The notes under the pieces are model-generated. The model was given only the letters and a program-made list of their open reading frames with translations, did no database searches and was not told the DNA's origin. Below are positions 1,324-15,542 of a DNA stretch of 20,000 bases, in pieces. The stretch is from an uncultured virus (IMG/VR IMGVR_UViG_3300017776_000001) (Duplodnaviria > Heunggongvirae > Uroviricota > Caudoviricetes), in IMG/VR virus record IMGVR_UViG_3300017776_000001, positions 52,302 through 72,301 of that record, one strand, 5' to 3'. The translations under genes and the position numbers were made by a program. Every line of letters begins with the position of its first letter. The first letter of the stretch is position 1.

Positions 1324-1659
1324 ATGGCAACAGCAAACTTTACAATCGATTATGGTTTGACAGTTGGTTCATCTGAAGTAATCACATCTAGTGGTAAAGT
1401 AGTGGCAGCTGCAGTATCAACTTTGACAACTGATAATTTAACACAGGGGTCGACAAATCTGTATTTTACAGGTTCACAGTTTAATACATCTTTTGCTTCT
1501 AAAGACACAGACGATTTATCAGAAGGGTCATCAAACCTTTACTTCACAGATACTAGAGCGAGAGGTTCTATATCTTTAGCATCAGGTGAAACCAATTTAT
1601 CTTATAACAGCACAAGTGGTGAACTATCATTACCAACAGTTGATGGAGGTACATTCTAA
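1324..1659 (+). CDS. Small fibre-related virion protein
   Basis: 111 aa. The N-terminus (NFTIDYGLTVGSSEVITSSG) and the TDxLxEGSxNLYFT repeats resemble those of the next gene. Its stop overlaps the next start (TAATG). Confidence 0.6.
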   Translation: MATANFTIDYGLTVGSSEVITSSGKVVAAAVSTLTTDNLTQGSTNLYFTGSQFNTSFASKDTDDLSEGSSNLYFTDTRARGSISLASGETNLSYNSTSGELSLPTVDGGTF

Positions 1660-3962
1660 TGGCAGGTGAAAAGAATTTTAACGTCAAGAATGGTCTATCG
1701 GTTGCTGGAACAGAAGTCATTCAAACAGATGGAACTTATGTAGGTTCCATTTCTGCAACTGCACTTAACGAAAGTGTAGACGATAGAGTTGCAAACCTCT
1801 TACAAGCAGGAGCTGGTATTGGATTATCATACGATGATGCAAATAACCAATTAACAATCACAGGTAATGTTGGTGATATCACTGGTGTTAACGCAGGTGC
1901 TGGTTTAACAGGTACTGCAACTTCAGGTGATGCAACATTAAACATTGGTGCTGGTACAGGTATTACTGTAAATGCAGATGACATTGCAATCAACTTTAAA
2001 GACGAAGACAACATGTCTTCAAACAGTGCAATACACGCTGCAACACAACAATCAATTAAAGCATATGTAGATTCCCAAGTATCAAGTAAAGACAACACAG
2101 ACGAAATTACAGAAGGAAGTTCAAACCTCTACTATACAAATGAAAGAGTAGATGACAGAGTAAGTTCATTACTTACCGAAGGAAGTGGTATATCATTAAC
2201 ATATGATGATACAGCTAACACACTTACAGTTGCAAATACAAACTCTGCAGATATTACAGCAGTAACAGCAGGAAATGGTTTGACTGGTGGTGGAACTTCA
2301 GGTGCAGTGTCACTTGCAGTTCAAGTTGATGACAGTTCATTAGAACTTGCATCAGATACAGTTCAAGTAAAAGCAGGTGGTATCACTAATGATATGTTAG
2401 CAGGTTCTATTGTAAATGGAAAACTTGCAAACAATTCAATATCAGTTAACTCAACTTCCGTATCCCTTGGTGGTTCTGTTACTTTAGACACTGGTGATAT
2501 TTCAGAAAATGGAAATCTATACCATACATCAGAAAGAGTTGACGATAGAGTCAATGCATTAATTACTGCTGGTACCAATATAACAACATCATATGATGAT
2601 GCAGCTGGTACACTTACAATTAACTCTTCAGGTAAAACACAAGAACAAATAGAAGACATCGTAAATGGTTTAGTAGTTGGTGGAACAAACATCACTTCTA
2701 CATACGATGATACAAATGGTACACTTACACTTGCTGGTTTATCAAATGGAGATATCAGAGGTTTATTATCTGCAACTGGAGATTTATCATACAACAGTAC
2801 TACAGGTGCATTCTCATTCACAGAAAGAACAAATGCAGAAGTAAGAGGTTTATTCTCAGCAGGTGGTGACTTAGCATACAACAGCACAACAGGTGCATTT
2901 AGTGTAACAAAATTCACAACTGCAAATGCAAGAAGTTCAATTTCAGCAGGTGGTGATTTAGCATACAATTCAAGTACTGGTGTTATCTCATACAGTGAAC
3001 CTACAATGTATGCAGACTCAGATGCAAGAGGAGCTATATCAGTAACAGACTCAGGTGGAGACGGTTCACTTGCATATAATTCTTCTACTGGTGTTATCAC
3101 ATACACAGGCCCAAGTGCATCAGAAGTTCGAGCTCATCTAAGTGCTGGAACTGGTGTTGGATTCTCAGGTGGTGCATTTAGTATCGGTCAGGCAGTCGCA
3201 ACAAACAGTAATGTAACATTTGCAGATGTAAATGCAAGTGGTGATTTAGTAGTCACAGGTGACTTAACAGTTAATGGGTCAACAGTTACCAACAGTGCAT
3301 CAAATACAACAATCGAAGATGCATTGATTGAACTTGGTTCAGGTAACACAGGTTCAAACTCTAATGACTTAGGTCTTATCCTCGAAAGAGGTTCAACTGG
3401 TGATAATGTATTCATGGGTTGGGACGAAAGTTCAGATAGAGTTAGATTTGCAACTACAACAGCAACAGGTTCATCCAGTGGTGCATTAACACTTACTAAT
3501 GCAAACATACAAGCAGGAAGACTTTACGGTGCTGTTACAGGTAACGTAACTGGTAATGCAGACACAGCTTCTGCATGGGCAGATGCAAGAACTATCTCTT
3601 TAGGTGGTGACCTTACAGGTTCCGTATCTATAGATGGTAGTGCAAACGCAACACTTAATGCAACAGTTGGTTCAAATGCAGTTGCATTAGGTTCAAACAC
3701 AACAGGAAATTACGTATCAGGAATATCAGGAACCTCAAATGAGATTACAATCTCAGGTTCAGGTAGTGAAAATGCAACAGTAACAATAGGTCTACCCGAT
3801 GATGTAACTATCGGTGATGCATTATCAGTTACTGGTAAAGGTACTACAGATTTTACAACAATCGGTAGTTCAGACGGAGCATTTAGAAATACTTTCATAC
3901 ATTCAGCAGGCCCATCAGGAAGTGATGGACAAGTCGGTGATGTATGGATAACTTACTCATAA
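1659..3962 (+). CDS. Long tail fibre-like protein
   Basis: 767 aa, G/S/T/A/D-rich. Recurring motifs ERVDDRV.xLL.AG.GI.LxYDD, GDLAYNSxTG, AGxGLTGG and GNVTGNADTA. Ends in a GPSGSDGQVGDVWITYS motif typical of phage fibre modules. Confidence 0.75.
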   Translation: MAGEKNFNVKNGLSVAGTEVIQTDGTYVGSISATALNESVDDRVANLLQAGAGIGLSYDDANNQLTITGNVGDITGVNAGAGLTGTATSGDATLNIGAGTGITVNADDIAINFKDEDNMSSNSAIHAATQQSIKAYVDSQVSSKDNTDEITEGSSNLYYTNERVDDRVSSLLTEGSGISLTYDDTANTLTVANTNSADITAVTAGNGLTGGGTSGAVSLAVQVDDSSLELASDTVQVKAGGITNDMLAGSIVNGKLANNSISVNSTSVSLGGSVTLDTGDISENGNLYHTSERVDDRVNALITAGTNITTSYDDAAGTLTINSSGKTQEQIEDIVNGLVVGGTNITSTYDDTNGTLTLAGLSNGDIRGLLSATGDLSYNSTTGAFSFTERTNAEVRGLFSAGGDLAYNSTTGAFSVTKFTTANARSSISAGGDLAYNSSTGVISYSEPTMYADSDARGAISVTDSGGDGSLAYNSSTGVITYTGPSASEVRAHLSAGTGVGFSGGAFSIGQAVATNSNVTFADVNASGDLVVTGDLTVNGSTVTNSASNTTIEDALIELGSGNTGSNSNDLGLILERGSTGDNVFMGWDESSDRVRFATTTATGSSSGALTLTNANIQAGRLYGAVTGNVTGNADTASAWADARTISLGGDLTGSVSIDGSANATLNATVGSNAVALGSNTTGNYVSGISGTSNEITISGSGSENATVTIGLPDDVTIGDALSVTGKGTTDFTTIGSSDGAFRNTFIHSAGPSGSDGQVGDVWITYS

Positions 3963-3976
3963 GAGTTTAATATAAT

Positions 3977-6900
3977 ATGGCGCAACGAATAAAGAACCCT
4001 ACGGGGTGGGTAAACACAACAGGAAGCTGGGTAAAAACATCTCCAACTGAATGGTCGGCAGTAGATTCTATCTATTCAAAGACACCTACTGGGTGGGTAA
4101 AGTCATCAGGACAAATGCCAGCTCAAGTAGTTGCAACAAGACCAGCAGTTGGGACAAGACCTTACAACTTCCAACAATCTTATCAATTCACTGTGCAACA
4201 GTCGTATCAGTATCATAATAGGGTACAGGCATCTACACAACAGTCATATCAGTATCATAACAGGGTTCAAACAAGTGTTCAACAAGATTACACTTATCAC
4301 AACCGTGTTCAACAAAATACTCAACAGACATATACCTATCATAATAGAGTACAAAGAAGAAGACCAGTACAACAAGCATATACCTATCATAATAGAGTAC
4401 CTAGACGTAGACCAGTACAACAGACTTATAGTTATCACAATCAGGTACCAAGACGTAGACCAGTACAACAGACGTACGTCTATCATAATCAGGTACCAAG
4501 ACGTAGACCTACACAACAATCATATCAATACCATAATAGAGTTGGTAGACAACGTGTAGTACAACAGGGTTATACTTATCACAATAGAGGACAAGCTTCT
4601 ACCCAACAGACTTACCAGTATCATAACAGAGTTCAAACAAGTACTCAACAACCTTACACTTATCATAATAGGGTACCTAGAAGAAGACCTGTACAACAGT
4701 CGTATCAGTACCATAATAGAGTACAAAGAAGAAGACCTGTTCAACAGACGTATACCTATCATCATAGAATACCAAGACGTAGACCAGTACAACAGGCATA
4801 CACTTATCACAATAGGATACAAACAAGTACTCAACAGGCATACACTTATCACAATAGGGTACCTAGAAGAAGACCAGTCCAACAGGCATACCAGTACCAC
4901 AATAGGGTGCAGAGAAGAAGACCTGTTCAACAGTCGTATCAGTACCATAATAGAGTACCTAGAAGAAGACCAGTACAACAAGGGTATACTTATCATAATA
5001 GAGGACAAGCATCAACTCAACAGACTTATCAATATCATAACAGAGTTCAAGCTTCTACTCAACAGAGTTACCAGTATCATAATAGGGTTCAGACTAGTGT
5101 ACAACAATCATACCAATACCATAATAGAGTACAGGTAAGTACACAACAGAATTACCAGTACAACAATACTGAATCAAGAAGAAGACCTGTACAACAAAGT
5201 TACCAGTACAACAATCAAGAGTCTAGAAGAAGACCAGTACAACAGGTATACCAGTATCATAATCAGGTACCTAGAAGAAGACCTGTACAACAGACGTATA
5301 CCTATCATAATCAGGTACCAAGACGTAGACCTGTACAACAAAGTTACCAGTACAATAATCAAGAGACAAGACGTAGACCAGCACAACAGTCTTATACGTA
5401 TCATAATAGACTTCAAGCTAGGTATAGTTACCAACAACCTTATAGTTATCACAATCAGGTACCAAGACGTAGACCTGTGCAACAAGCATACACTTATCAT
5501 AATCAGGTTCCAAGACGTAGACCAGTTCAACAGTCTTATCAGTACAATAATCAAGAGTCAAGACGTAGACCAGTTCAACAGTCTTATCAGTACAATAATC
5601 AAGAGCCAAGACGTAGACCAACACAACAGTCTTATCAGTTTAACCAACCTACACCTAGAAGAAGACCTGTACAACAAACATACCAGTTTAACCAACCTAC
5701 ATCTAGGACAAGACAGACTACAGTAAGGAATAGCGCACACACAGCTTACATCCATTATGGAAATATCTATGGTGGTGGTGGTGATACATCTGTTATTAAG
5801 GTAGAAACTCCATACGGACAAAGAACTTCCTATATACCATCTTTTGAGTTCTCGGGTTTCCCAATGAATGCTCAGAATACAGGTACTGCAAGTCCATTTG
5901 GTTTTGCAGGAAGACCTGATGGAAAAGGACATGAAAGAGATTCCTTTAGAGGAAACATGATGTTCAGAGGGCCTTCGTTACAAATGTCAGGTACACAATC
6001 ACCATTCTTTACTGGTAGTGGCCCACAAAACCAATCAACATCACCGAAGAGTTGGCACTATAGAAGTTACTTTGGTGGACAAAGACAGTGGCAGGGTGTG
6101 TTAAGATTTGTTGGTGCGAACATGGAATTTGGTGCTGATTTCGTTGCAGGGCCAGCTGCTCAATCTGTTCAAAGTATACCTAACCCACAGAGACAAGGTT
6201 CAATACCTATTACAGGACAAGCACCAACTAATTCTCAATATGGTGCAAAAATAACGAGTGGACAGACTGCAACATTTAAATGGTCACAAGATGGTCAGAT
6301 GCAGTCACAATCACCCGGCGGTGGAGGTGGAGGATTCCCACTATTTGTCAGAAACAAAGGTGATGTATTCGTTAGAAGTAGAGATTTGTCTCATGTTCAC
6401 CAAGTAACTTTCAGTAATAGTGCTGGTGTGACATGGCCTCAAGGTCAGATGAACGAGATGCAACAGCCTGGTCAACAGAACCAACCGTACACTTATCATA
6501 ATAGGGTACAAAGACGTAGACCAACACAACAACCGTACACTTATCATAATAGGGTACCTAGAAGAAGACCAGTACAACAGGCATACACTTATCATAATCA
6601 GGTACCTAGAAGAAGACCTGTGCAACAAGCGTACACTTATCATAATCAGGTACCAAGACGTAGACCTGTACAACAAAGTTACCAGTACAACAATCAAGAG
6701 TCTAGAAGAAGACCAGTACAACAAAGTTACCAGTACAATAATACTGAGACTAGGAGAAGACCTGCTAGGTCAGACTATCGAGTCAACCAACCTACTCCTA
6801 GAAGAAGACCAGTACAACAGACGTATACCTATCATAATAGAATACCGAGACGTAGACCAGTGCAACAATCTTATCAGTACAATAATACTGAGACTAGAAG

Positions 6901-8125
6901 AAGACCAGTGCAATCGTCTTATCAGTACAATAATACTGAATCTAGAAGAAGACCAGTTCAACAGACGTATACTTATCATAATAGAATACCAAGACGTAGA
7001 CCTGTACAACAAAGTTATCAGTATCATAATCAGGTACCTAGAAGAAGACCAACTAGAGTACAAACATTACAGAGGGTGTCAAGACAGAGACCAGCAAGAG
7101 TACAAGCTTTACAACGTGTATCAAGACGTAGACCAACAAGAGTACAACAGTTGCAACGTGTCTCTAGACAAAGACCAGCAAGAGTACAGGTTAACATTCA
7201 AGAAACAAGAAGAAGACCAGTACAACAAAGTTACCAGTACAATAATATTGTAACTAGACAACGTCCTGTACAACAAGGTTATCAATATAATAATATTGAG
7301 TCTAGAAGAAGACCAGTGCAACAGGGTTATCAATATAATAATACTGAGACTAGAAGAAGACCAACTAGAGTACAGGTGAACCAACCTTCTCCTAGAAGAA
7401 GACCTGTTCAACAGAGTTATCAGTATAATAGTACTGAGAACAGACAGAGACCAGTACAACAAGGTTATCAGTATAATAATATTGAGACTAGACAACGTCC
7501 TGTACAACAAGGTTACCAGTATAATAATGTTGAGACTAGAAGAAGACCAGCAAGAGTACAACAGTTGCAACGTGTTTCTAGACAAAGACCTGCTAGAGTT
7601 CAGGTAAATATACAAGAAACTAGAAGAAGACCAGCACAGCAAACTTATCAGTACAATAATATTGTAACTAGACAACGTCCAACACAACAGAATTATCAAT
7701 ATAATAATACTGAAAATAGACAGAGACCAGTGCAACAAGGTTACCAGTATAATAATACTGAAAACAGACAAAGACCAGTGCAACAGGGTTATCAATATAA
7801 TAATATTGAGTCTAGAAGAAGACCAGTGCAACAGGGTTATCAATATAATAATATTGAGTCTAGACAAAGACCAGCAAGAGTTCAGGTTCTACAGAATGTA
7901 ACTAGACAAAGACCTGCTAGAACACAGGTATTGCAGAGAGTTTCAAGACAGAGACCTACTAGGGTACAGGTATTGCAAAGAGTTTCAAGACAGAGACCAG
8001 CACAGTCATCCCGTCAGAAGGTTACAGTTGGTATACAACCATATGCATATCAACAACCGTATAGAAATACAGTTCAGAAATGGGATGGTACAACGTCTTG
8101 GCCTGCACAACCAATATCCTCTTAA
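3977..8125 (+). CDS. Giant Arg/Gln/Tyr-rich repeat protein with mirror-symmetric arms; putative hairpin fibre or adhesin
   Basis: 1382-aa uninterrupted ORF directly after the fibre gene. Layout: Trp-containing N-terminal cap (aa 1-82), repeat arm (aa 83-574), unique domain (aa 575-843), repeat arm (aa 844-1335), C-terminal cap. The CDS is secure; the function is inferred. Confidence 0.8.
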   Translation: MAQRIKNPTGWVNTTGSWVKTSPTEWSAVDSIYSKTPTGWVKSSGQMPAQVVATRPAVGTRPYNFQQSYQFTVQQSYQYHNRVQASTQQSYQYHNRVQTSVQQDYTYHNRVQQNTQQTYTYHNRVQRRRPVQQAYTYHNRVPRRRPVQQTYSYHNQVPRRRPVQQTYVYHNQVPRRRPTQQSYQYHNRVGRQRVVQQGYTYHNRGQASTQQTYQYHNRVQTSTQQPYTYHNRVPRRRPVQQSYQYHNRVQRRRPVQQTYTYHHRIPRRRPVQQAYTYHNRIQTSTQQAYTYHNRVPRRRPVQQAYQYHNRVQRRRPVQQSYQYHNRVPRRRPVQQGYTYHNRGQASTQQTYQYHNRVQASTQQSYQYHNRVQTSVQQSYQYHNRVQVSTQQNYQYNNTESRRRPVQQSYQYNNQESRRRPVQQVYQYHNQVPRRRPVQQTYTYHNQVPRRRPVQQSYQYNNQETRRRPAQQSYTYHNRLQARYSYQQPYSYHNQVPRRRPVQQAYTYHNQVPRRRPVQQSYQYNNQESRRRPVQQSYQYNNQEPRRRPTQQSYQFNQPTPRRRPVQQTYQFNQPTSRTRQTTVRNSAHTAYIHYGNIYGGGGDTSVIKVETPYGQRTSYIPSFEFSGFPMNAQNTGTASPFGFAGRPDGKGHERDSFRGNMMFRGPSLQMSGTQSPFFTGSGPQNQSTSPKSWHYRSYFGGQRQWQGVLRFVGANMEFGADFVAGPAAQSVQSIPNPQRQGSIPITGQAPTNSQYGAKITSGQTATFKWSQDGQMQSQSPGGGGGGFPLFVRNKGDVFVRSRDLSHVHQVTFSNSAGVTWPQGQMNEMQQPGQQNQPYTYHNRVQRRRPTQQPYTYHNRVPRRRPVQQAYTYHNQVPRRRPVQQAYTYHNQVPRRRPVQQSYQYNNQESRRRPVQQSYQYNNTETRRRPARSDYRVNQPTPRRRPVQQTYTYHNRIPRRRPVQQSYQYNNTETRRRPVQSSYQYNNTESRRRPVQQTYTYHNRIPRRRPVQQSYQYHNQVPRRRPTRVQTLQRVSRQRPARVQALQRVSRRRPTRVQQLQRVSRQRPARVQVNIQETRRRPVQQSYQYNNIVTRQRPVQQGYQYNNIESRRRPVQQGYQYNNTETRRRPTRVQVNQPSPRRRPVQQSYQYNSTENRQRPVQQGYQYNNIETRQRPVQQGYQYNNVETRRRPARVQQLQRVSRQRPARVQVNIQETRRRPAQQTYQYNNIVTRQRPTQQNYQYNNTENRQRPVQQGYQYNNTENRQRPVQQGYQYNNIESRRRPVQQGYQYNNIESRQRPARVQVLQNVTRQRPARTQVLQRVSRQRPTRVQVLQRVSRQRPAQSSRQKVTVGIQPYAYQQPYRNTVQKWDGTTSWPAQPISS
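4223..5698 (+). repeat. Coding tandem repeat, N-arm: 32 units of 48 or 42 bp
   Basis: 16-aa units such as VPRRRPVQQxYxYHNR and 14-aa units such as VQASTQQSYQYHNR. Order: 3x14, 5x16, 2x14, 3x16, 1x14, 3x16, 4x14, 11x16. Confidence 0.95.
6506..7981 (+). repeat. Coding tandem repeat, C-arm: 32 units of 48 or 42 bp
   Basis: 16-aa units such as ESRRRPVQQGYQYNNI and 14-aa units such as VSRQRPARVQVLQR. Order: 11x16, 4x14, 3x16, 1x14, 3x16, 2x14, 5x16, 3x14. Confidence 0.95.
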
Positions 8126-8181: not shown

Positions 8182-9636
8182 ATGAAGTATATTGATTTAC
8201 CCGACCCAGTGAGTGTGAAAAGTTCTTTCAACGACCATCTTGGTGGATTGAATAAAACAAAACCCAAGAAAGAAGTGATGATTAAAATCAAAGAAAAGTT
8301 TGATGAAATCTCACGTATATACAAACCTAAAATAGTTTCACTTGGTGACTTGCACAAAAAGTATGGTGTAAGTTACCAAGAAGACTCCTCACATAAAATT
8401 AGGGATTTCTTTCGTGCATTACAAGTTGGAGAAGCAGCTGTTGATGCAGAAGACTTTGAAAGAATAAATGGTGATGAGAACTCTTCTCGTCTCTATCATG
8501 CAACTAAATTACATTTCTTAATTCAAGATATCCGAGACAAAGGAATTGAATACGGCCCTCAAGGTGTATTGTATTGGCCTCCTACTGCAGATGCAGATGA
8601 GATTAGATACTTTGTACATCCCGGCACTGGAAGATATTCTGCAATCAAATATTTACAAAAATGGGATACTGAGTGTTTGGTATGGGATGCATATGACGTA
8701 TGTTATGACCATAAACCAATGTCTTACTCTGAATGGATAGTTCACACTTTTAAAAATAATCTATATCCCGATATGAATCATGTGTCTTATTGTTGGAATC
8801 AAGGTATCATAGAAGCACACCAAAATAGAGACATGAGAGGTGACTATACTGAAGCAAATGACTACTTACATTATACACTATTCAATGGTGAGATACCAAC
8901 TATATACGTTGGATATGATGGTAGACATGGTGAAGTTTCAGATGTTTGTATAAAGAGTATACAACATTCTATTGAAAGATACAATAACAAAATGGGAGAC
9001 TTATCAAGTGTTCCGTGGAATGCATTCGTTAATATTAAAAAACTTGACGTTTCAAAGATTCCCGAGTATACTAGAGAGTATGCAAACCAATCAACAGAGT
9101 TTACGTATAGTAGATTCATGATACCATACTTAGAGAAATATCAAGGTGTCAGTATGTTTGTGGATGATGACTTTATCTTCACAGAAGATATGTTACACTT
9201 ATTTTATTCACTAGGACATACTGATTCCGTTGCATGTTTCCATCATGACTTTTCTGATAAAGGTATTACAGAAAAATTAGGTGGAGAAAAGAATGTATGG
9301 TATCCTAAAAAACTATGGTCAAGTCTTATGATATTTAACAACGGTCATAAGGATTGTAGAAAACTAACACCCGAGGTGGTAAACACACAATCGGGTCAAT
9401 ATCTACATCAATTTAAATGGACAGATAATGTAGTCAAACTTCAAGACGATTGTTGTTGGACTGAAGGTTACTCTGATGAACCATATAACGTAAAGAAACA
9501 TAGAATGATTCATTACACAAATGGGGGCCCATGGATTGAAAACTTCAATGATAGTGTTCAACAAATTGGTAGATATAATTATTATAAAAATCTCGTAGAG
9601 ATTGACAACAAAAAGGTGAAAGAAAATGGCAAATAG
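8182..9636 (+). CDS. Two-domain protein: N-terminal ParB/Srx-like domain plus C-terminal GT-A glycosyltransferase (GT8-like phage family)
   Basis: The C-half has IYVGYD, STEFTYSRFMIPYL, a DxD motif in FVDDDFIF, WSSLMIFN and HYTNGGPW. The N-half has LIQDIRDKG..PQGV..YFVHPGTGRYSAIKYL, resembling the ParB-like core. Confidence 0.75.
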   Translation: MKYIDLPDPVSVKSSFNDHLGGLNKTKPKKEVMIKIKEKFDEISRIYKPKIVSLGDLHKKYGVSYQEDSSHKIRDFFRALQVGEAAVDAEDFERINGDENSSRLYHATKLHFLIQDIRDKGIEYGPQGVLYWPPTADADEIRYFVHPGTGRYSAIKYLQKWDTECLVWDAYDVCYDHKPMSYSEWIVHTFKNNLYPDMNHVSYCWNQGIIEAHQNRDMRGDYTEANDYLHYTLFNGEIPTIYVGYDGRHGEVSDVCIKSIQHSIERYNNKMGDLSSVPWNAFVNIKKLDVSKIPEYTREYANQSTEFTYSRFMIPYLEKYQGVSMFVDDDFIFTEDMLHLFYSLGHTDSVACFHHDFSDKGITEKLGGEKNVWYPKKLWSSLMIFNNGHKDCRKLTPEVVNTQSGQYLHQFKWTDNVVKLQDDCCWTEGYSDEPYNVKKHRMIHYTNGGPWIENFNDSVQQIGRYNYYKNLVEIDNKKVKENGK

Positions 9637-10195: not shown

Positions 10196-10885
10196 ATGGA
10201 AGTTGTATATCTAGATAAACCCTTTAAGATACAGAAATTCCCCTTAGATAAAATCTATGTCTTAGACGATTGGGTAACATACGAAATCATGTATAACATG
10301 AGGAGACTAACCTCAAGAACTATATGGGCTCAAAACAATCAGGTAAATAGAAACGGTAAGATACGTCATCTGTTTTGGGGTGCAACATTCTATGAGGGCA
10401 AAGATAAAAAAATTAGAGACCATACTTATCATATGCAAGACACCTATCTTATCAGATATCTAGATTGGAAACTTCAATCAGAGTTTGGTTTTAGATGGGA
10501 AAAATTTCAGTATGCTGGTATGAATGGTCAGACCACTGGTCTTCAAGGGACTATACACGAAGATAGTTCTCCTGAAAATACAACTAATATATCTTTCTTA
10601 TGGTACAACACTGAGTATTGGGAAAAAGAATGGGGTGGCCCACTTAAATTTTATAACGAAGAAGCAAAACATATAGATGGTTATAAAGAAGAGTATTTAA
10701 AACATCAGATTGCACAGGTTGATTATAAACCAAATAGATTACTAATGTTTGATGGGAGTATACCACACAATGCAGATGCTCCAAATGATGCATGTGAATA
10801 TGCATGTAGACAGTCTCTAGTTATACGAGGTGATGCATGTCGACTAGAGAATGAATTAGATTATTATGCCAACGATAGAATTTAA
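10196..10885 (+). CDS. 2OG-Fe(II) oxygenase, prolyl 4-hydroxylase-like
   Basis: HxD motif (IHEDS), WEKEWGGPLKF, PNRLLMFDGSIPH (distal His) and RQSLV (2OG-binding Arg). Confidence 0.85.
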   Translation: MEVVYLDKPFKIQKFPLDKIYVLDDWVTYEIMYNMRRLTSRTIWAQNNQVNRNGKIRHLFWGATFYEGKDKKIRDHTYHMQDTYLIRYLDWKLQSEFGFRWEKFQYAGMNGQTTGLQGTIHEDSSPENTTNISFLWYNTEYWEKEWGGPLKFYNEEAKHIDGYKEEYLKHQIAQVDYKPNRLLMFDGSIPHNADAPNDACEYACRQSLVIRGDACRLENELDYYANDRI

Positions 10886-11741
10886 CACAACAAACGAAAA
10901 AGCATTTAAAGAATATCGTCCTGTAGTTGCAAAACATATACATCCTAATTGGTGGAAAGAGATGAGTGTTTCAGCTAATGGACGAGACAATATTAAGATG
11001 TGTCCTTCAATGTTAGATGTGTTGGGTAGTGGTTACTACATTACATGTGTTGAAGATATTAAAATAGAATACCCTAAAAATGATTTAGATGGTTCACCCA
11101 AATATGAACTGGGACAATTTGCAAAGTGTCCACACAATCCTAATTATGAAACTACTGGTCACCCTAGAGAACAATTCCCTAACTTCGAGTATGCAAAGGC
11201 AGATGTAGAAGAAAATCTAGAAAAAAATAATGCAGTCAAAATTAGAGTTCCATGGAGTGTAACAACACCATTGGGTTATTCTTGTTTATATCTAGACCCA
11301 TTTCTATTTCAAAATAGATTCTTTCAGACTTGGCAGGGGGTTATGGACACCGATAAATATACAGGTGGAGACTTAAATGGTTTAATTATTCTGTATCCTA
11401 AGACAAGAGAAGAGTTTGTTATTCCAGCAGGAACACCTATAGCACAGATAGTTCCATATAGAAGAGAGTCGTGGAAAGCTAGTATCGATTTGATTAGTAC
11501 CGAACAATATCAAAAAGACCATGATGCATTTCTATATCATAAGTTTGCAACAGATGATTCAACACCCTTTAAGAAAGGTGGTGGAATAGAAAAGAAATGG
11601 GTTCCAAAATCACCACTCTTTGAAAAGGATATTTTTGACCCATTCAATATTATTCCGACTGAAGAAGAACTTGAACAAGAAAGAAAAATATCAAAAGAAG
11701 TTAGGAATGCAAAATCTCTAAGAGAGAAAATTGAGGATTAA
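10866..11741 (+). CDS. Conserved phage protein, DUF6065-like with dUTPase-like beta-fold motifs
   Basis: KMCPSMLD..GY, PWSVTTPLGYSCLY..P, GVMDTD and IPAGTPIAQIVPY. Family assignment is from motif recall. Confidence 0.55.
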   Translation: MPTIEFNTTNEKAFKEYRPVVAKHIHPNWWKEMSVSANGRDNIKMCPSMLDVLGSGYYITCVEDIKIEYPKNDLDGSPKYELGQFAKCPHNPNYETTGHPREQFPNFEYAKADVEENLEKNNAVKIRVPWSVTTPLGYSCLYLDPFLFQNRFFQTWQGVMDTDKYTGGDLNGLIILYPKTREEFVIPAGTPIAQIVPYRRESWKASIDLISTEQYQKDHDAFLYHKFATDDSTPFKKGGGIEKKWVPKSPLFEKDIFDPFNIIPTEEELEQERKISKEVRNAKSLREKIED

Positions 11742-11744
11742 ATT

Positions 11745-12497
11745 ATGGCAGTAGAATTACTATTCCCAAACTATGTTTTTCATAGACAACTAACCGCTGA
11801 AAACTTACACGACAGACAGGGTGTATCTTTTGACTATCTACAGTCGTTGAAAGATGAAATGGATGGAATGAGAGCTAGAGATGAAGGTAGGTCGGTATCT
11901 AACAGAAATGGATGGCAATCTAATGATGGGTGTGAATCAAATCCTAGATTTCAAAAATTGATGAATAGAATTATACGTATGTTTGATGATGAAGTCTTAC
12001 CCTTCTATGGGTTTAACAAAGGAGATGTCAGTGTACAGATTGGTAATTCTTGGGCAAACATTAATGGTCACATGTGTTGGAACTCTCCTCACTTACATAA
12101 TGGTTGTTGGTATAGTGGAGTGTTTTATATACATGCAGACGGTGACGAGGGAGATATTGATTTCATAGACACAGATGAAAAAGTGGTACACGACATGCCA
12201 CCATCACCCATGATACAGATGTCATCACATCAACAACCGACTACAGGTAAATTGATATTGTTCCCAAGTGGTTTGATGCATATGGTAGAACCCAACATGA
12301 CACAGAAAGAGAGATACAGTATATCCTTTAACATCAATTATCAGATGAACAATCAAATAAAGATTGGTGAGTCATTATCAAATAGATATTATCCATGGAT
12401 ATTTGAATTAGACCAAGAGGGGTATCCCTTAAATTATCAAGATATAACTGGAAATATGCCACCACTCGAACCCCTTGAGGACGATACGATTACCTAA
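11745..12497 (+). CDS. 2OG-Fe(II) oxygenase-like protein (TIGR02466 / 2OG-FeII_Oxy_5 type)
   Basis: GWQS, SWANIN..NSPHLH..YSGVFY and GKLILFPSGLMHMVEPN..RYSISFN. Confidence 0.85.
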   Translation: MAVELLFPNYVFHRQLTAENLHDRQGVSFDYLQSLKDEMDGMRARDEGRSVSNRNGWQSNDGCESNPRFQKLMNRIIRMFDDEVLPFYGFNKGDVSVQIGNSWANINGHMCWNSPHLHNGCWYSGVFYIHADGDEGDIDFIDTDEKVVHDMPPSPMIQMSSHQQPTTGKLILFPSGLMHMVEPNMTQKERYSISFNINYQMNNQIKIGESLSNRYYPWIFELDQEGYPLNYQDITGNMPPLEPLEDDTIT

Positions 12498-13635: not shown

Positions 13636-14505
13636 ATGCCAACAAATGTATTTTTCAATCATGCAGTATCGTCTGAACAACACCTGTATGAAGACTTAGT
13701 TGTTGAGTCACTTAGAATGTATGGTCACAACATCTACTATCTTCCTAGGGAGATAATAGAAGAAGACACCATTTTAGGAGAAGATGTTGCATCAAAATTT
13801 GGAGATGCATATGAGATTGAAGCATATCTAGAAAACGTAGAAGGATTTGAAGGAGAAGGAGACTTATATTCTAAGTTTGGTGTAGAGATAAGAGACCAAG
13901 CAACCTTTGTGATTGCACTTAGAACATGGGAAAGATTCGTATCTCTAGATAATAACCTCACCTCATCATTCAGACCAAACGAAGGTGATGTAATACACTT
14001 CCCTCTCAGTGGTTCTTTATTTGAAATTAAGTTTGTTGAACATGAAGACCCATTCTATCAAGTCGGTAAGCTCTTTGTATTCAAGTGTAGATGTGAATTA
14101 TTTGAATATAGAGGAGAAGATTTTGACACTGGTACTAATGCAGACTTGGTTGAAGCAGAAAGAACATACACTATAAGTGCAACAATGACTGCTGGTTCAG
14201 GAGACTCAGGTAATTACACAGAAAATGAAGAACTTAAGATTGGTGATAATGTTATTGGTGAAGTGTCTACATATAAAAGGTCTAACAGAACTCTTACAAT
14301 CATACACAACAATACACCACTTGCAGTGGGTGACAGATTAGTAGGTGCAGTGTCAGGTGCAACTAGACAGATACAAACAATTACCGATGCACTTGATATG
14401 CCAAATGACCCGAATGCACAAAATAAAGAATTCGAAGATGCAGCTGATAATTACATAGACTTCAGTGAAACAAACCCTTTCGGTGAGATAGGAAATAATA
14501 GTTAA
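13636..14505 (+). CDS. gp14: Neck protein gp14
   Basis: EQHLYEDLVVESLRMYG..YYLPRE, SKFG, RPNEGDVIHFP, FEIKFVEHEDPFYQVGK, C-terminal DFSETNPFG. Confidence 0.95.
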   Translation: MPTNVFFNHAVSSEQHLYEDLVVESLRMYGHNIYYLPREIIEEDTILGEDVASKFGDAYEIEAYLENVEGFEGEGDLYSKFGVEIRDQATFVIALRTWERFVSLDNNLTSSFRPNEGDVIHFPLSGSLFEIKFVEHEDPFYQVGKLFVFKCRCELFEYRGEDFDTGTNADLVEAERTYTISATMTAGSGDSGNYTENEELKIGDNVIGEVSTYKRSNRTLTIIHNNTPLAVGDRLVGAVSGATRQIQTITDALDMPNDPNAQNKEFEDAADNYIDFSETNPFGEIGNNS

Positions 14506-14507
14506 TC

Positions 14508-15542
14508 ATGTTTACATATTTTTACAATGAAACAATAAGACGTTCAGTATCTGTGTTTGGTACCATGTTTAATAATATCACAGTTAAACAGACTAAATCA
14601 GATGGGACAGTTGTAAACAGTATTAAAGTTCCTTTGTCGTATGGTCAAAGACAGAAGTTCTTACAGAGATTAAAAGAAGAACCCGATTTGAATGACAACT
14701 TAAGAAGTGCAATATCACTTCCTAGAATGGGATTTGAAGTCAGTGGTTTCACCTACGACCAAAATAGACAACAAAATAAACTTATCCGTTCCACTAAAAC
14801 TACTATGGAGTCAGATAATGTTAGTAGAAAGTTTCAATATCAACCCACACCATATGATATAAACTTTACACTATCCATCTATGCAAAGAACATGACAGAT
14901 GGTTTACAAATAGTAGAACAAATACTACCGTATTTTCAACCCGAATATACGGTTGCAATGAAAATGATTGATGATATGTCAGAAGTAAGAGACGTACCTA
15001 TCATTTTAACAGGTGTAAATATGGACGACCAATTCGAAGGGTCGTTTGAAGACAAGAGAGTAATTAACTTTACTCTAGATTTTACAATGAAAACTTATTT
15101 CTTTGGCCCAGTATATAAAGGTAAAGTTATTACTAAGGTTAGAGAGAAAACATTTATAAATGATGGAAGACATGGTTTCACATCATCAGAACTTACTACA
15201 TCAGGCATCGTAAAGGACGTTAAGTTTTACGAACCAGCATTTGAAGGAACAGTTGCAAGTGCAGTGTCTAATAACACTACAGTGACTTTCTCAGCTGCAA
15301 TAGATAGTAATGTATCTGTAAATGATACTATGGAAGGTTCATCTACTAATCCCGACCCAACAGTCTCTTCTATAGCAGGAGACAGACTGTCTGTAGTGGT
15401 TTCTAGTAACGTTACTTTGTCCCAAGGTGATAAAGTATACTTCACAGGAAGTGCATCTGCAGAGGACAATTATGTTATATCAGAAGATGTATCATTCTTT
15501 GATGAGGGATATGGTGGTAATGAAGCTTCAACCACAGACTAG
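14508..15542 (+). CDS. gp15: Tail sheath stabiliser / tail terminator gp15
   Basis: YFYNETIRR..FGTMFNNI, KVPLSYG, LPRMGFE, PYDINFTL, QIVEQILPYFQP, plus synteny. Confidence 0.95.
   Translation: MFTYFYNETIRRSVSVFGTMFNNITVKQTKSDGTVVNSIKVPLSYGQRQKFLQRLKEEPDLNDNLRSAISLPRMGFEVSGFTYDQNRQQNKLIRSTKTTMESDNVSRKFQYQPTPYDINFTLSIYAKNMTDGLQIVEQILPYFQPEYTVAMKMIDDMSEVRDVPIILTGVNMDDQFEGSFEDKRVINFTLDFTMKTYFFGPVYKGKVITKVREKTFINDGRHGFTSSELTTSGIVKDVKFYEPAFEGTVASAVSNNTTVTFSAAIDSNVSVNDTMEGSSTNPDPTVSSIAGDRLSVVVSSNVTLSQGDKVYFTGSASAEDNYVISEDVSFFDEGYGGNEASTTD

Follow-up and report, generated by a model that had tools for sequence, protein, structure and literature searches.

The N- and C-terminal arms of SMC and Rad50 proteins, ATPases that act on chromosomes, are α-helical coiled coils that fold back antiparallel from an apex domain and leave both termini at the base, and the lengths and discontinuities of the two arms co-vary. 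Among viral fibres, the triple β-spirals of the adenovirus fibre and of reovirus sigma1 consist of three parallel chains, each with one run of repeats and a head at its C terminus. In antigen I/II (AgI/II) adhesins, three long repeats on each side pair outer to outer and inner to inner. In the AgI/II protein of Streptococcus mutans, two repeat regions flanking a central domain form a fibrillar stalk in which proline side chains are set against aromatics, with an alanine-rich α-helix paired with a polyproline-II helix and a solved A3-P1 pair of 155 Å (available part of PMC3707005, describing Larson et al. 2010). The needle of the T4 fibre protein gp37 measures ∼150 by 25 Å (PMC3004832). Its base, D10, is composed of residues 811–881 plus 1010–1026, the chain running out and back; seven iron ions bound by the histidines of the trimer hold the needle, and the tip subdomain binds lipopolysaccharide and OmpC (available part of PMC6957217). 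Here we analyse a 1382-residue protein encoded in a 20,000-nucleotide stretch of DNA (the window; positions 52,302–72,301 of the uncultured virus record IMGVR_UViG_3300017776_000001), in which two repeat arms of mirrored unit order flank a central domain. Judging by their sequence, the arms almost certainly pair antiparallel, in a fibre design not yet described.

The reading frame at 3977–8125 (+ strand) is open throughout, and 14 bp separate its start from the preceding gene, which encodes a structural protein of 767 residues. The product contains 211 Arg and 44 Ala but no Cys and carries a net charge of +186, with Arg clusters recurring every 14–16 residues. It is divided as follows.

3977..4180, + strand: N-terminal flank, residues 1–68; unique, Trp/Gly-rich, candidate virion-attachment end.
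4181..5740, + strand: N arm, residues 69–588; 34 units, net charge +80, evident from the unit parse, the constant-sum test and the ladder view.
5741..6463, + strand: central unique domain, residues 589–829; predicted tip and candidate receptor-binding domain.
6464..8023, + strand: C arm, residues 830–1349; 34 units, net charge +94, evident from the unit parse, the constant-sum test, the ladder view and the junction code.
8024..8125, + strand: C-terminal flank, residues 1350–1382, and stop codon; faces the N-terminal flank in the ladder view.

The units of the arms differ in which motifs they carry. Type L has 16 residues (xxRRRPVQQxYxYxNx) and includes both an Arg and a Tyr motif. Type y has 14 residues (VQxSxQQxYxYHNR) and lacks the Arg motif, type r has 14 residues (VSRQRPARVQVLQR) and lacks the Tyr motif, and type Y is a 16-mer in which the Arg motif is degenerate. 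From base to tip the N arm reads y4 L5 y2 L3 y1 L3 y4 L5 Y L5 r, and from tip to base the C arm reads y L5 R L5 r4 L3 r1 L3 r2 L5 r4, which reverses the N arm exactly, with each unit type replaced by its complement. The initial annotation had listed 32 units and 492 residues for each arm, with unit lengths exactly reversed between the arms and one aberrant 16-mer as the sixth unit of each block of eleven 16-mers. Both statements were reproduced, the former as a clean cut of residues 83–574 (nucleotides 4223–5698) and 844–1335 (6506–7981). A Viterbi parse with three unit profiles, in which the arms were run separately and blind to mirroring, returned identical unit strings and extended each arm by one pair at either end, to 34 pairs and 520 residues per arm.

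The mirror order is also evident from a test that uses no parse, in which Tyr and Arg motifs were located by regular expression and a constant index sum between the arms was sought. At the single index sum of 1413, all 33 Tyr motifs of the N arm meet an Arg motif of the C arm and all 21 Arg motifs of the N arm meet a Tyr motif of the C arm (54/54 in total). The next-best index sums give 22 and 17 matches, and the best parallel registers, at constant difference, give 16 and 10. When the order of the C-arm units was shuffled, as the initial annotation had proposed, none of 20,000 shuffles reached 54 (maximum 46, mean 25.5); the 10 short units can be placed among 32 in 64,512,240 ways.

The same annotation had stated that the arrangement is not a DNA inversion, and in agreement with this the gene contains no inverted DNA repeats. 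DNA rearrangement cannot produce mirrored unit order when all units read in the same direction, and the short units differ between the two arms. The inner parts of the N and C arms have exact direct DNA repeats in common (5183–5244 and 6662–6723, 62 bp; 5303–5355 and 6638–6690, 53 bp), which points to recent exchange of sequence between them in direct orientation, in spite of the mirrored unit order.

An artefact, either a misassembled repeat order or a disordered low-complexity tract without any pairing, would be another explanation. Logan contigs from four runs of four studies match the gene at at least 99% in 139 of 140 pieces, yet they cover only 200–990 bp within it and break inside the arms, none spanning an arm, and four relatives have arms of unequal length (described below), both of which speak for an artefact. 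However, the longest exact direct DNA repeat inside the gene is only 67 bp, and 31-mers of the gene are present at 86–96% in 20 runs (of 24 listed) drawn from 12 seawater and viral metagenome studies. Since the outer-arm pattern is common to three independent assemblies, an assembly artefact is an unlikely source of the repeat order. Nor could misassembly create the two exact complementary codes described next, and we regard this explanation as a whole as extremely improbable.

The first layer of complementarity concerns the motifs. In every short pair of the window protein the N-arm unit lacks the Arg motif and its C-arm partner lacks the Tyr motif, so that the elements lost are exactly the two that the constant sum would bring face to face. 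The same rule of Arg loss opposite Tyr loss holds for the aberrant 16-mer of each arm, without the two-residue deletion. The second layer, which goes beyond the initial annotation, lies at the unit junctions, where YxYHN is paired with YxYNN in 93 of 93 facing H/N pairs. The complete tally of 95 facing pairs from nine proteins is 50 H:N, 43 N:H, no H:H, no N:N and two others (V:H and S:H). In the same 95 pairs, a Glu that opens the next unit is never found opposite another Glu (38 E:x, 38 x:E, 19 x:x, 0 E:E). Regional uniformity could be an alternative source of the junction code in the outer arms; the inner blocks mix H- and N-type junctions in both arms and keep the complementarity. With 7 N-type junctions among the 12 inner pairs of the window protein, a perfect complement would arise by chance once in 792. 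When unit boundaries are aligned (N position a against C position 17 − a), L:L pairs place R16 opposite E1 and V1 opposite I/T/V16, and the same register places R opposite V in short pairs, the exact physical register not being fixed by the sequence. As both codes are kept through matched changes in the two arms, selection for antiparallel contact between the arms would appear to be the cause; it is the only explanation that we found.

The high net charge and the regular Arg clusters could alternatively indicate that the arms do not touch, and that a third, polyanionic or periodic partner such as DNA, another fibre or a polymer of the host surface carries them both in antiparallel orientation, the mirror reflecting the symmetry of this partner. 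Such a partner predicts like opposite like, whereas units without Arg motif are always found opposite units without Tyr motif, and neither H:H nor N:N occurs among the 95 junction pairs, so that the arms are complementary to one another. The gene is moreover located in the fibre/baseplate block and not among head or DNA-handling genes. A third partner in place of arm-to-arm contact is in our view very unlikely.

The family proved small: protein searches returned eight relatives at E ≤ 0.001 among 1.84 billion representatives and seven in a word-indexed protein database, and loci were found in IMG/VR (eight) and in JGI metagenome contigs (four). The comparison covers 10 distinct full-length sequences including that of the window, three of the main type (the window protein, L002 at 80% identity and L003 at 88%) and seven of the paralogue type (L006, L007, which is identical to L008, P0011, P0012, P0013, P0003, and P0014). 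A protein search seeded with P0014 yielded no further members, a protein-database search with the centre gave no match at lengths of 760–2419, and none was obtained when the whole protein was compared by tblastn with 50,697 phage records, the low-complexity filter masking the arms. Viral contigs were also searched for split (two-gene) or remoter forms with a degenerate DNA pattern and a C-arm alignment, which recovered only the same four contigs, fragments, and one chance match in a high-GC contig.

The paralogue L006, a protein of 746 residues, is encoded ∼7.2 kb upstream, beyond the window (G000:C1:46844-49084, which corresponds to L006:2959-5196 and L025:10845-13085). Its centre is 44% identical to that of the window protein, and its arms have 14 units each and follow the same two codes in a different pattern. 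The last 65 residues of this paralogue are 89–92% conserved in close relatives and 49% in the distant P0014. The idea that the N-terminal flank of the window protein and the C-terminal flank of the paralogue represent one attachment module was unsupported, since BLASTP gave only E = 0.25 and over a different stretch.

Co-variation of the arms among homologues, which the initial annotation had put forward as a check, was found in part: six of the 10 full-length sequences are mirrored over their whole arms, in five patterns, and the other four have unequal arms, a case that the annotation had named as one that would refute its reading. The window protein and L003 share one mirror pattern. In L002 the inner block has 10 units instead of 11 in both arms, two r units of the N arm face two y units of the C arm, which is the reverse polarity, and the constant-sum test gives 30/30 and 22/23. 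The pattern of L006 is L5 y2 L2 y4 against r4 L2 r2 L4(+1), and L007 differs from it by a single switch from L to a short unit at mirrored positions in both arms; the constant-sum tests give 13/13 and 7/7 for L006 and 13/13 and 6/6 for L007. P0014, which is 24–49% identical to L006 depending on the region, has five r units in the outer N arm facing five y units in the outer C arm, and its constant-sum test gives 5/7 and 10/11. Each of its arms contains two long units of 20 and 26 residues, in swapped order between the arms and with equal totals.

Phage receptor-binding proteins usually keep the end by which they are attached and vary at the distal end. Here, instead, both ends are conserved and the middle is variable. 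Within the main type, identity is 91–100% at the termini (N-terminal flank 91–94% and C-terminal flank 91% to L002 and L003), 83–90% in the arms and 74–75% in the centre; within the paralogue type it is 89–100% at the termini and 49–59% in the centre. The centre is the least conserved part of the protein, falling to 24% identity with P0014, and contains 57 invariant columns across five sequences. It had no match in Pfam, PHROG or PDB and no usable one in the ESM Atlas, a profile of the centre gave no PDB hit at E ≤ 1, and the N-terminal flank had no match in Pfam. An AlphaFold2 model of the centre is all-β, at low confidence. A gradient from conserved termini to a variable centre would suit a fold-back in which both termini form the base and the centre forms a distal tip.

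We consider it probable that the arms pair antiparallel, most likely within one chain as a fold-back stalk with a receptor-binding tip, and that the protein forms a virion fibre in a marine T4-like myophage. The chain would run out through the N arm, pass through a tip domain of ∼240 residues and return through the C arm, the two arms lying antiparallel with all 34 unit pairs in register. Pairing over this length would bring both conserved termini together at the virion-proximal base and leave the variable centre at the distal tip, where host binding would take place. The register would be set by a peptide pairing code in which the Arg motif (xRRRPx) of one arm lies opposite the Tyr motif (QQxYxY) of the other at each rung, so that a full 16:16 pair would make two Arg/Tyr contacts and a short 14:14 pair one, and at the unit junctions 'HNx|V' would lie opposite 'NNx|E'. 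From the initial annotation, which had proposed a very long in-register antiparallel hairpin, the in-register antiparallel pairing is retained, strongly supported by the mirror complementarity, the junction code, the matched changes and the conservation gradient; the intrachain topology and a bare two-stranded ribbon of ∼160 nm are best kept as proposals. The mirror and complementarity codes, their persistence through matched changes, the conservation gradient and the gene context are observed; we infer physical contact between the arms, intrachain topology, β geometry, the oligomeric state and the receptor-binding role.

The prolines of the C arm are spaced 1–15 residues apart, with a longest proline-free stretch of 15 residues and the sequence PRRRP present in units of 14 and 16 residues, and because of this the arms cannot be α-helical coiled coils. 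All unit lengths are even (14, 16, 20, and 26 residues). Spacings between Tyr motifs are even in 281 of 281 cases across 12 proteins, and spacings between Arg motifs in 280 of 285; three of the five odd spacings begin at a match on the edge of the centre, and one is a split 14 in P0014 caused by overlapping pattern matches. Even spacings fit the two-residue periodicity of a β-strand, which is suggestive rather than strong, as only about four kinds of insertion or deletion lie behind them. Given the even unit lengths, the stalk is probably β-type, either a ribbon or several bundled hairpins. Depending on its geometry the stalk would be 45–175 nm long; fully extended it would measure ∼170 nm, and that of the paralogue ∼70 nm. 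The half-fibres of T4 are 70 and 74 nm long (PMC3004832).

A more compact fold-back is also conceivable, in which each unit of 14–16 residues forms one coil or hairpin in a solenoid-like column and the columns are docked antiparallel, which would give a stalk of ∼16–45 nm and not ∼170 nm. Since Gln, Asn and Tyr occupy fixed positions in the unit, they could build stacking ladders as in β-solenoids, and repeats of ∼15 residues form the compact triple β-spirals of the adenovirus fibre. The code acts at the level of the unit, and joint loss of an Arg and a Tyr motif could represent one lost lateral contact. A stack of this kind would, however, align three Arg per unit over 34 layers in a protein with 211 Arg. 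It would also need no matched unit lengths, yet the residue sums are exactly constant over 520 residues, the swapped long units of P0014 have equal totals, and every length is even. We judge the compact column to be unlikely.

Several observations weigh against the fold-back stalk. AlphaFold2 models of the 746-residue paralogue (two-row alignment; predicted local distance difference test (pLDDT) 27.5, predicted template modelling score (pTM) 0.17) and of a tip construct of residues 527–891 (12 rows; pLDDT 38, pTM 0.36) are of very low confidence and show the arms as coil. A complex prediction for the outer N arm (residues 69–290) with the outer C arm (residues 1125–1346) scored 0.00 in both runs, with partner pLDDT below 50 and unfolded controls, and counts neither way. 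Both arms are strongly basic, so that pairing either has to prevail against the repulsion of like charges or may involve a polyanionic partner; the basicity may be tolerable at seawater salt, may serve to bind anionic cell surfaces or may be the sign of such a partner. The location in the virion and the binding of a receptor are drawn from gene context only.

The four relatives with unequal arms belong on the same side. The N arm of P0011 is one y unit short beside the tip, the N arm of P0012 is two outer L units short, the C arm of P0013 is without an internal 30-residue r+L block and consequently has two registers (708 and 738), and the C arm of P0003 is about five units short and has no single register, the best accounting for 6 of 12 motifs. 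In each variant one contiguous block of units is gone from one arm, and in three of the four the remainder lies in one or two constant registers. The block missing from P0013 is present in fragment P0004, which is closely related to P0013 and is an exact mirror of the P0013 N arm. All four sequences come from short-read metagenome assemblies (contigs of 141,688, 34,554, 4,912, and 3,643 bp), and the unequal arms may reflect collapsed repeats or real variants.

Finally, the sequence evidence fits pairing within and between chains alike: the mirror and junction codes demand only that an N arm pairs antiparallel with a C arm, and no covalent turn. Two chains could form a head-to-tail dimer in which the N arm of one pairs with the C arm of the other, placing the centres next to each other in the middle of a rod of about double length, or three chains could form a domain-swapped trimer, the N arm of each paired with the C arm of its neighbour. 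Phage fibres are usually trimers. In the tip of T4 gp37 the chains are in close contact, for example through G921-F970 and G964-H929 of the neighbouring subunit (available part of PMC6957217). A head-to-tail rod would have its variable domain at mid-rod and two equivalent ends, which fits poorly with the conservation gradient and with attachment by one end. In three of the four variants with unequal arms the difference lies at the tip or base, which a hairpin would tolerate as an overhang, and a domain-swapped trimer retains the fold-back topology and is thus a variant of the single-chain stalk. Pairing between chains seems to us a real though rather unlikely alternative.

The initial annotation had found no resemblance to described phage fibres, which was too strong in view of the out-and-back chain of gp37 D10. 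The intrachain fold-back proposed here shares with gp37 that a T4-type fibre sends its chain to a receptor-binding tip and back (a course suggested here by the mirror codes), placing segments distant in sequence side by side. In gp37, however, the return arms comprise a few dozen residues with neither tandem repeats nor a unit code, compared with 520 residues per arm here. The HxH motif that supplies iron ligands in gp37 occurs once in the 1382 residues, at residue 806 in the centre, and is absent from the paralogue and P0014. Searches gave no similarity to gp37 or to the collar and needle domains of gp12, gp10, and gp11, no Pfam or PHROG family beyond a sub-threshold repeat match, and no PDB chain at E ≤ 0.1. 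That repeat match, to the 16-residue repeats of Pfam PF08017 (Fibrinogen_BP), involves the C-arm repeats only and scores 38 bits, below the gathering cut-off of 50.

Antigen I/II, which together with the gp37 needle is the nearest structural analogue, likewise has a long stalk and a central domain flanked by two different repeat regions. It differs in being a bacterial cell-wall adhesin, whereas the protein of this virus has 34 short units per side, both motifs in both arms, prolines that exclude a helix, and even unit lengths; no Pfam match to the A repeats, P repeats or V domain and no sequence relation to them was found. The protein is a member of neither the gp37-needle nor the antigen I/II family, and would have the fold-back principle in common with both. 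SMC and Rad50 resemble the proposed layout in their antiparallel arms, apex domain and basal termini, but the window protein contains no heptads and has prolines throughout its arms, and the arms are therefore not of the heptad-helical kind. With the triple β-spirals it has in common that these are viral fibres of ∼15-residue pseudo-repeats with a proline or glycine turn, a fold that does not require two mirrored complementary arms. The unit motifs RRRPVQQ, YQYNN, and YTYHNR were not found in the papers searched, and among the papers that full-text searches listed on fold-back antiparallel-repeat tail fibres and on pelagimyophage tail fibres, none describes such a protein in its title or abstract, nor do the available parts of PMC6851490 and PMC5537660.

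The window carries tail and neck genes that form one block in a T4-like myophage; the GC content is ∼36%. Downstream of the mirror-coded gene are genes for gp13-like and gp14-like neck proteins, gp15 (tail sheath stabiliser), the small and large terminase, the tail sheath and the tail tube. Upstream in the same 72-kb record are those for the gp8 baseplate wedge, a 2208-residue DUF4815 protein, a 917-residue tail-fibre protein, the 746-residue paralogue, an LtfC-like protein of 110 residues, whose gene follows that of the paralogue, and further fibre-like proteins. Compared with the tail sheaths of Pelagibacter phages Mosig and HTVC008M and Methylophilales phage Melnitz, that of this virus is 48% identical. 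The baseplate/fibre module context together with the conservation gradient places the mirror-coded protein in the functional class of phage tail fibres and receptor-binding proteins.

Neighbouring structural proteins of 111, 767, 917, and 533 residues (window 1324–3962; L025:8068-10821 and 13848-15449) share segments of PHROG 697 'structural protein', which suggests a modular set of fibre proteins around the two mirror-coded genes. Within the 767-residue gene, 46 bp (2040–2085) match a structural-protein gene of a podophage, Pelagibacter phage HTVC115P, at 93.5% identity, the only megablast match of the window. Directly downstream of the mirror-coded gene, a 484-residue open reading frame (8182–9636) has its sole match in PHROG 28018, a function-unassigned family, and could encode a fibre partner or assembly factor. 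Between the fibre genes and gp13, at 10196–12497, two open reading frames matching 2OG-Fe(II) oxygenases (10196–10885 and 11745–12497) flank one of 291 residues. The T4 late-promoter motif TATAAATA matches twice in the window, which is not above chance, and neither match is near the mirror-coded gene.

Taken to its full extent, the single-chain fold-back would represent an undescribed fibre design: a β-type hairpin with more than 500 residues per arm, a two-layer peptide code for register and a length that the phage sets through gain or loss of matched rungs in both arms. Two fibres, of ∼170 and 70 nm, would then be formed by the paralogues on a single virion, their tip domains being interchangeable, and the unequal-arm variants would be evolutionary intermediates awaiting compensation. 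This fuller version is tentative, and we would not yet favour it over its negation. If the arms do pair in the way that the code suggests, the protein would be a natural, sequence-addressed antiparallel protein zipper of more than 500 residues whose rungs can be read from the sequence. Structural biology would gain a case in which arm fragments, matched or mismatched, allow the pairing rules to be tested, and protein design a rod of programmable length with both ends on one side. The fold-back of phage fibres, known only from the short gp37 needle, would prove extendable about ten-fold by tandem repeats. For phage biology, the finding would indicate how host-recognition fibres are built, and their length tuned, in uncultured marine myophages that are abundant and related to the phages of SAR11 and OM43.

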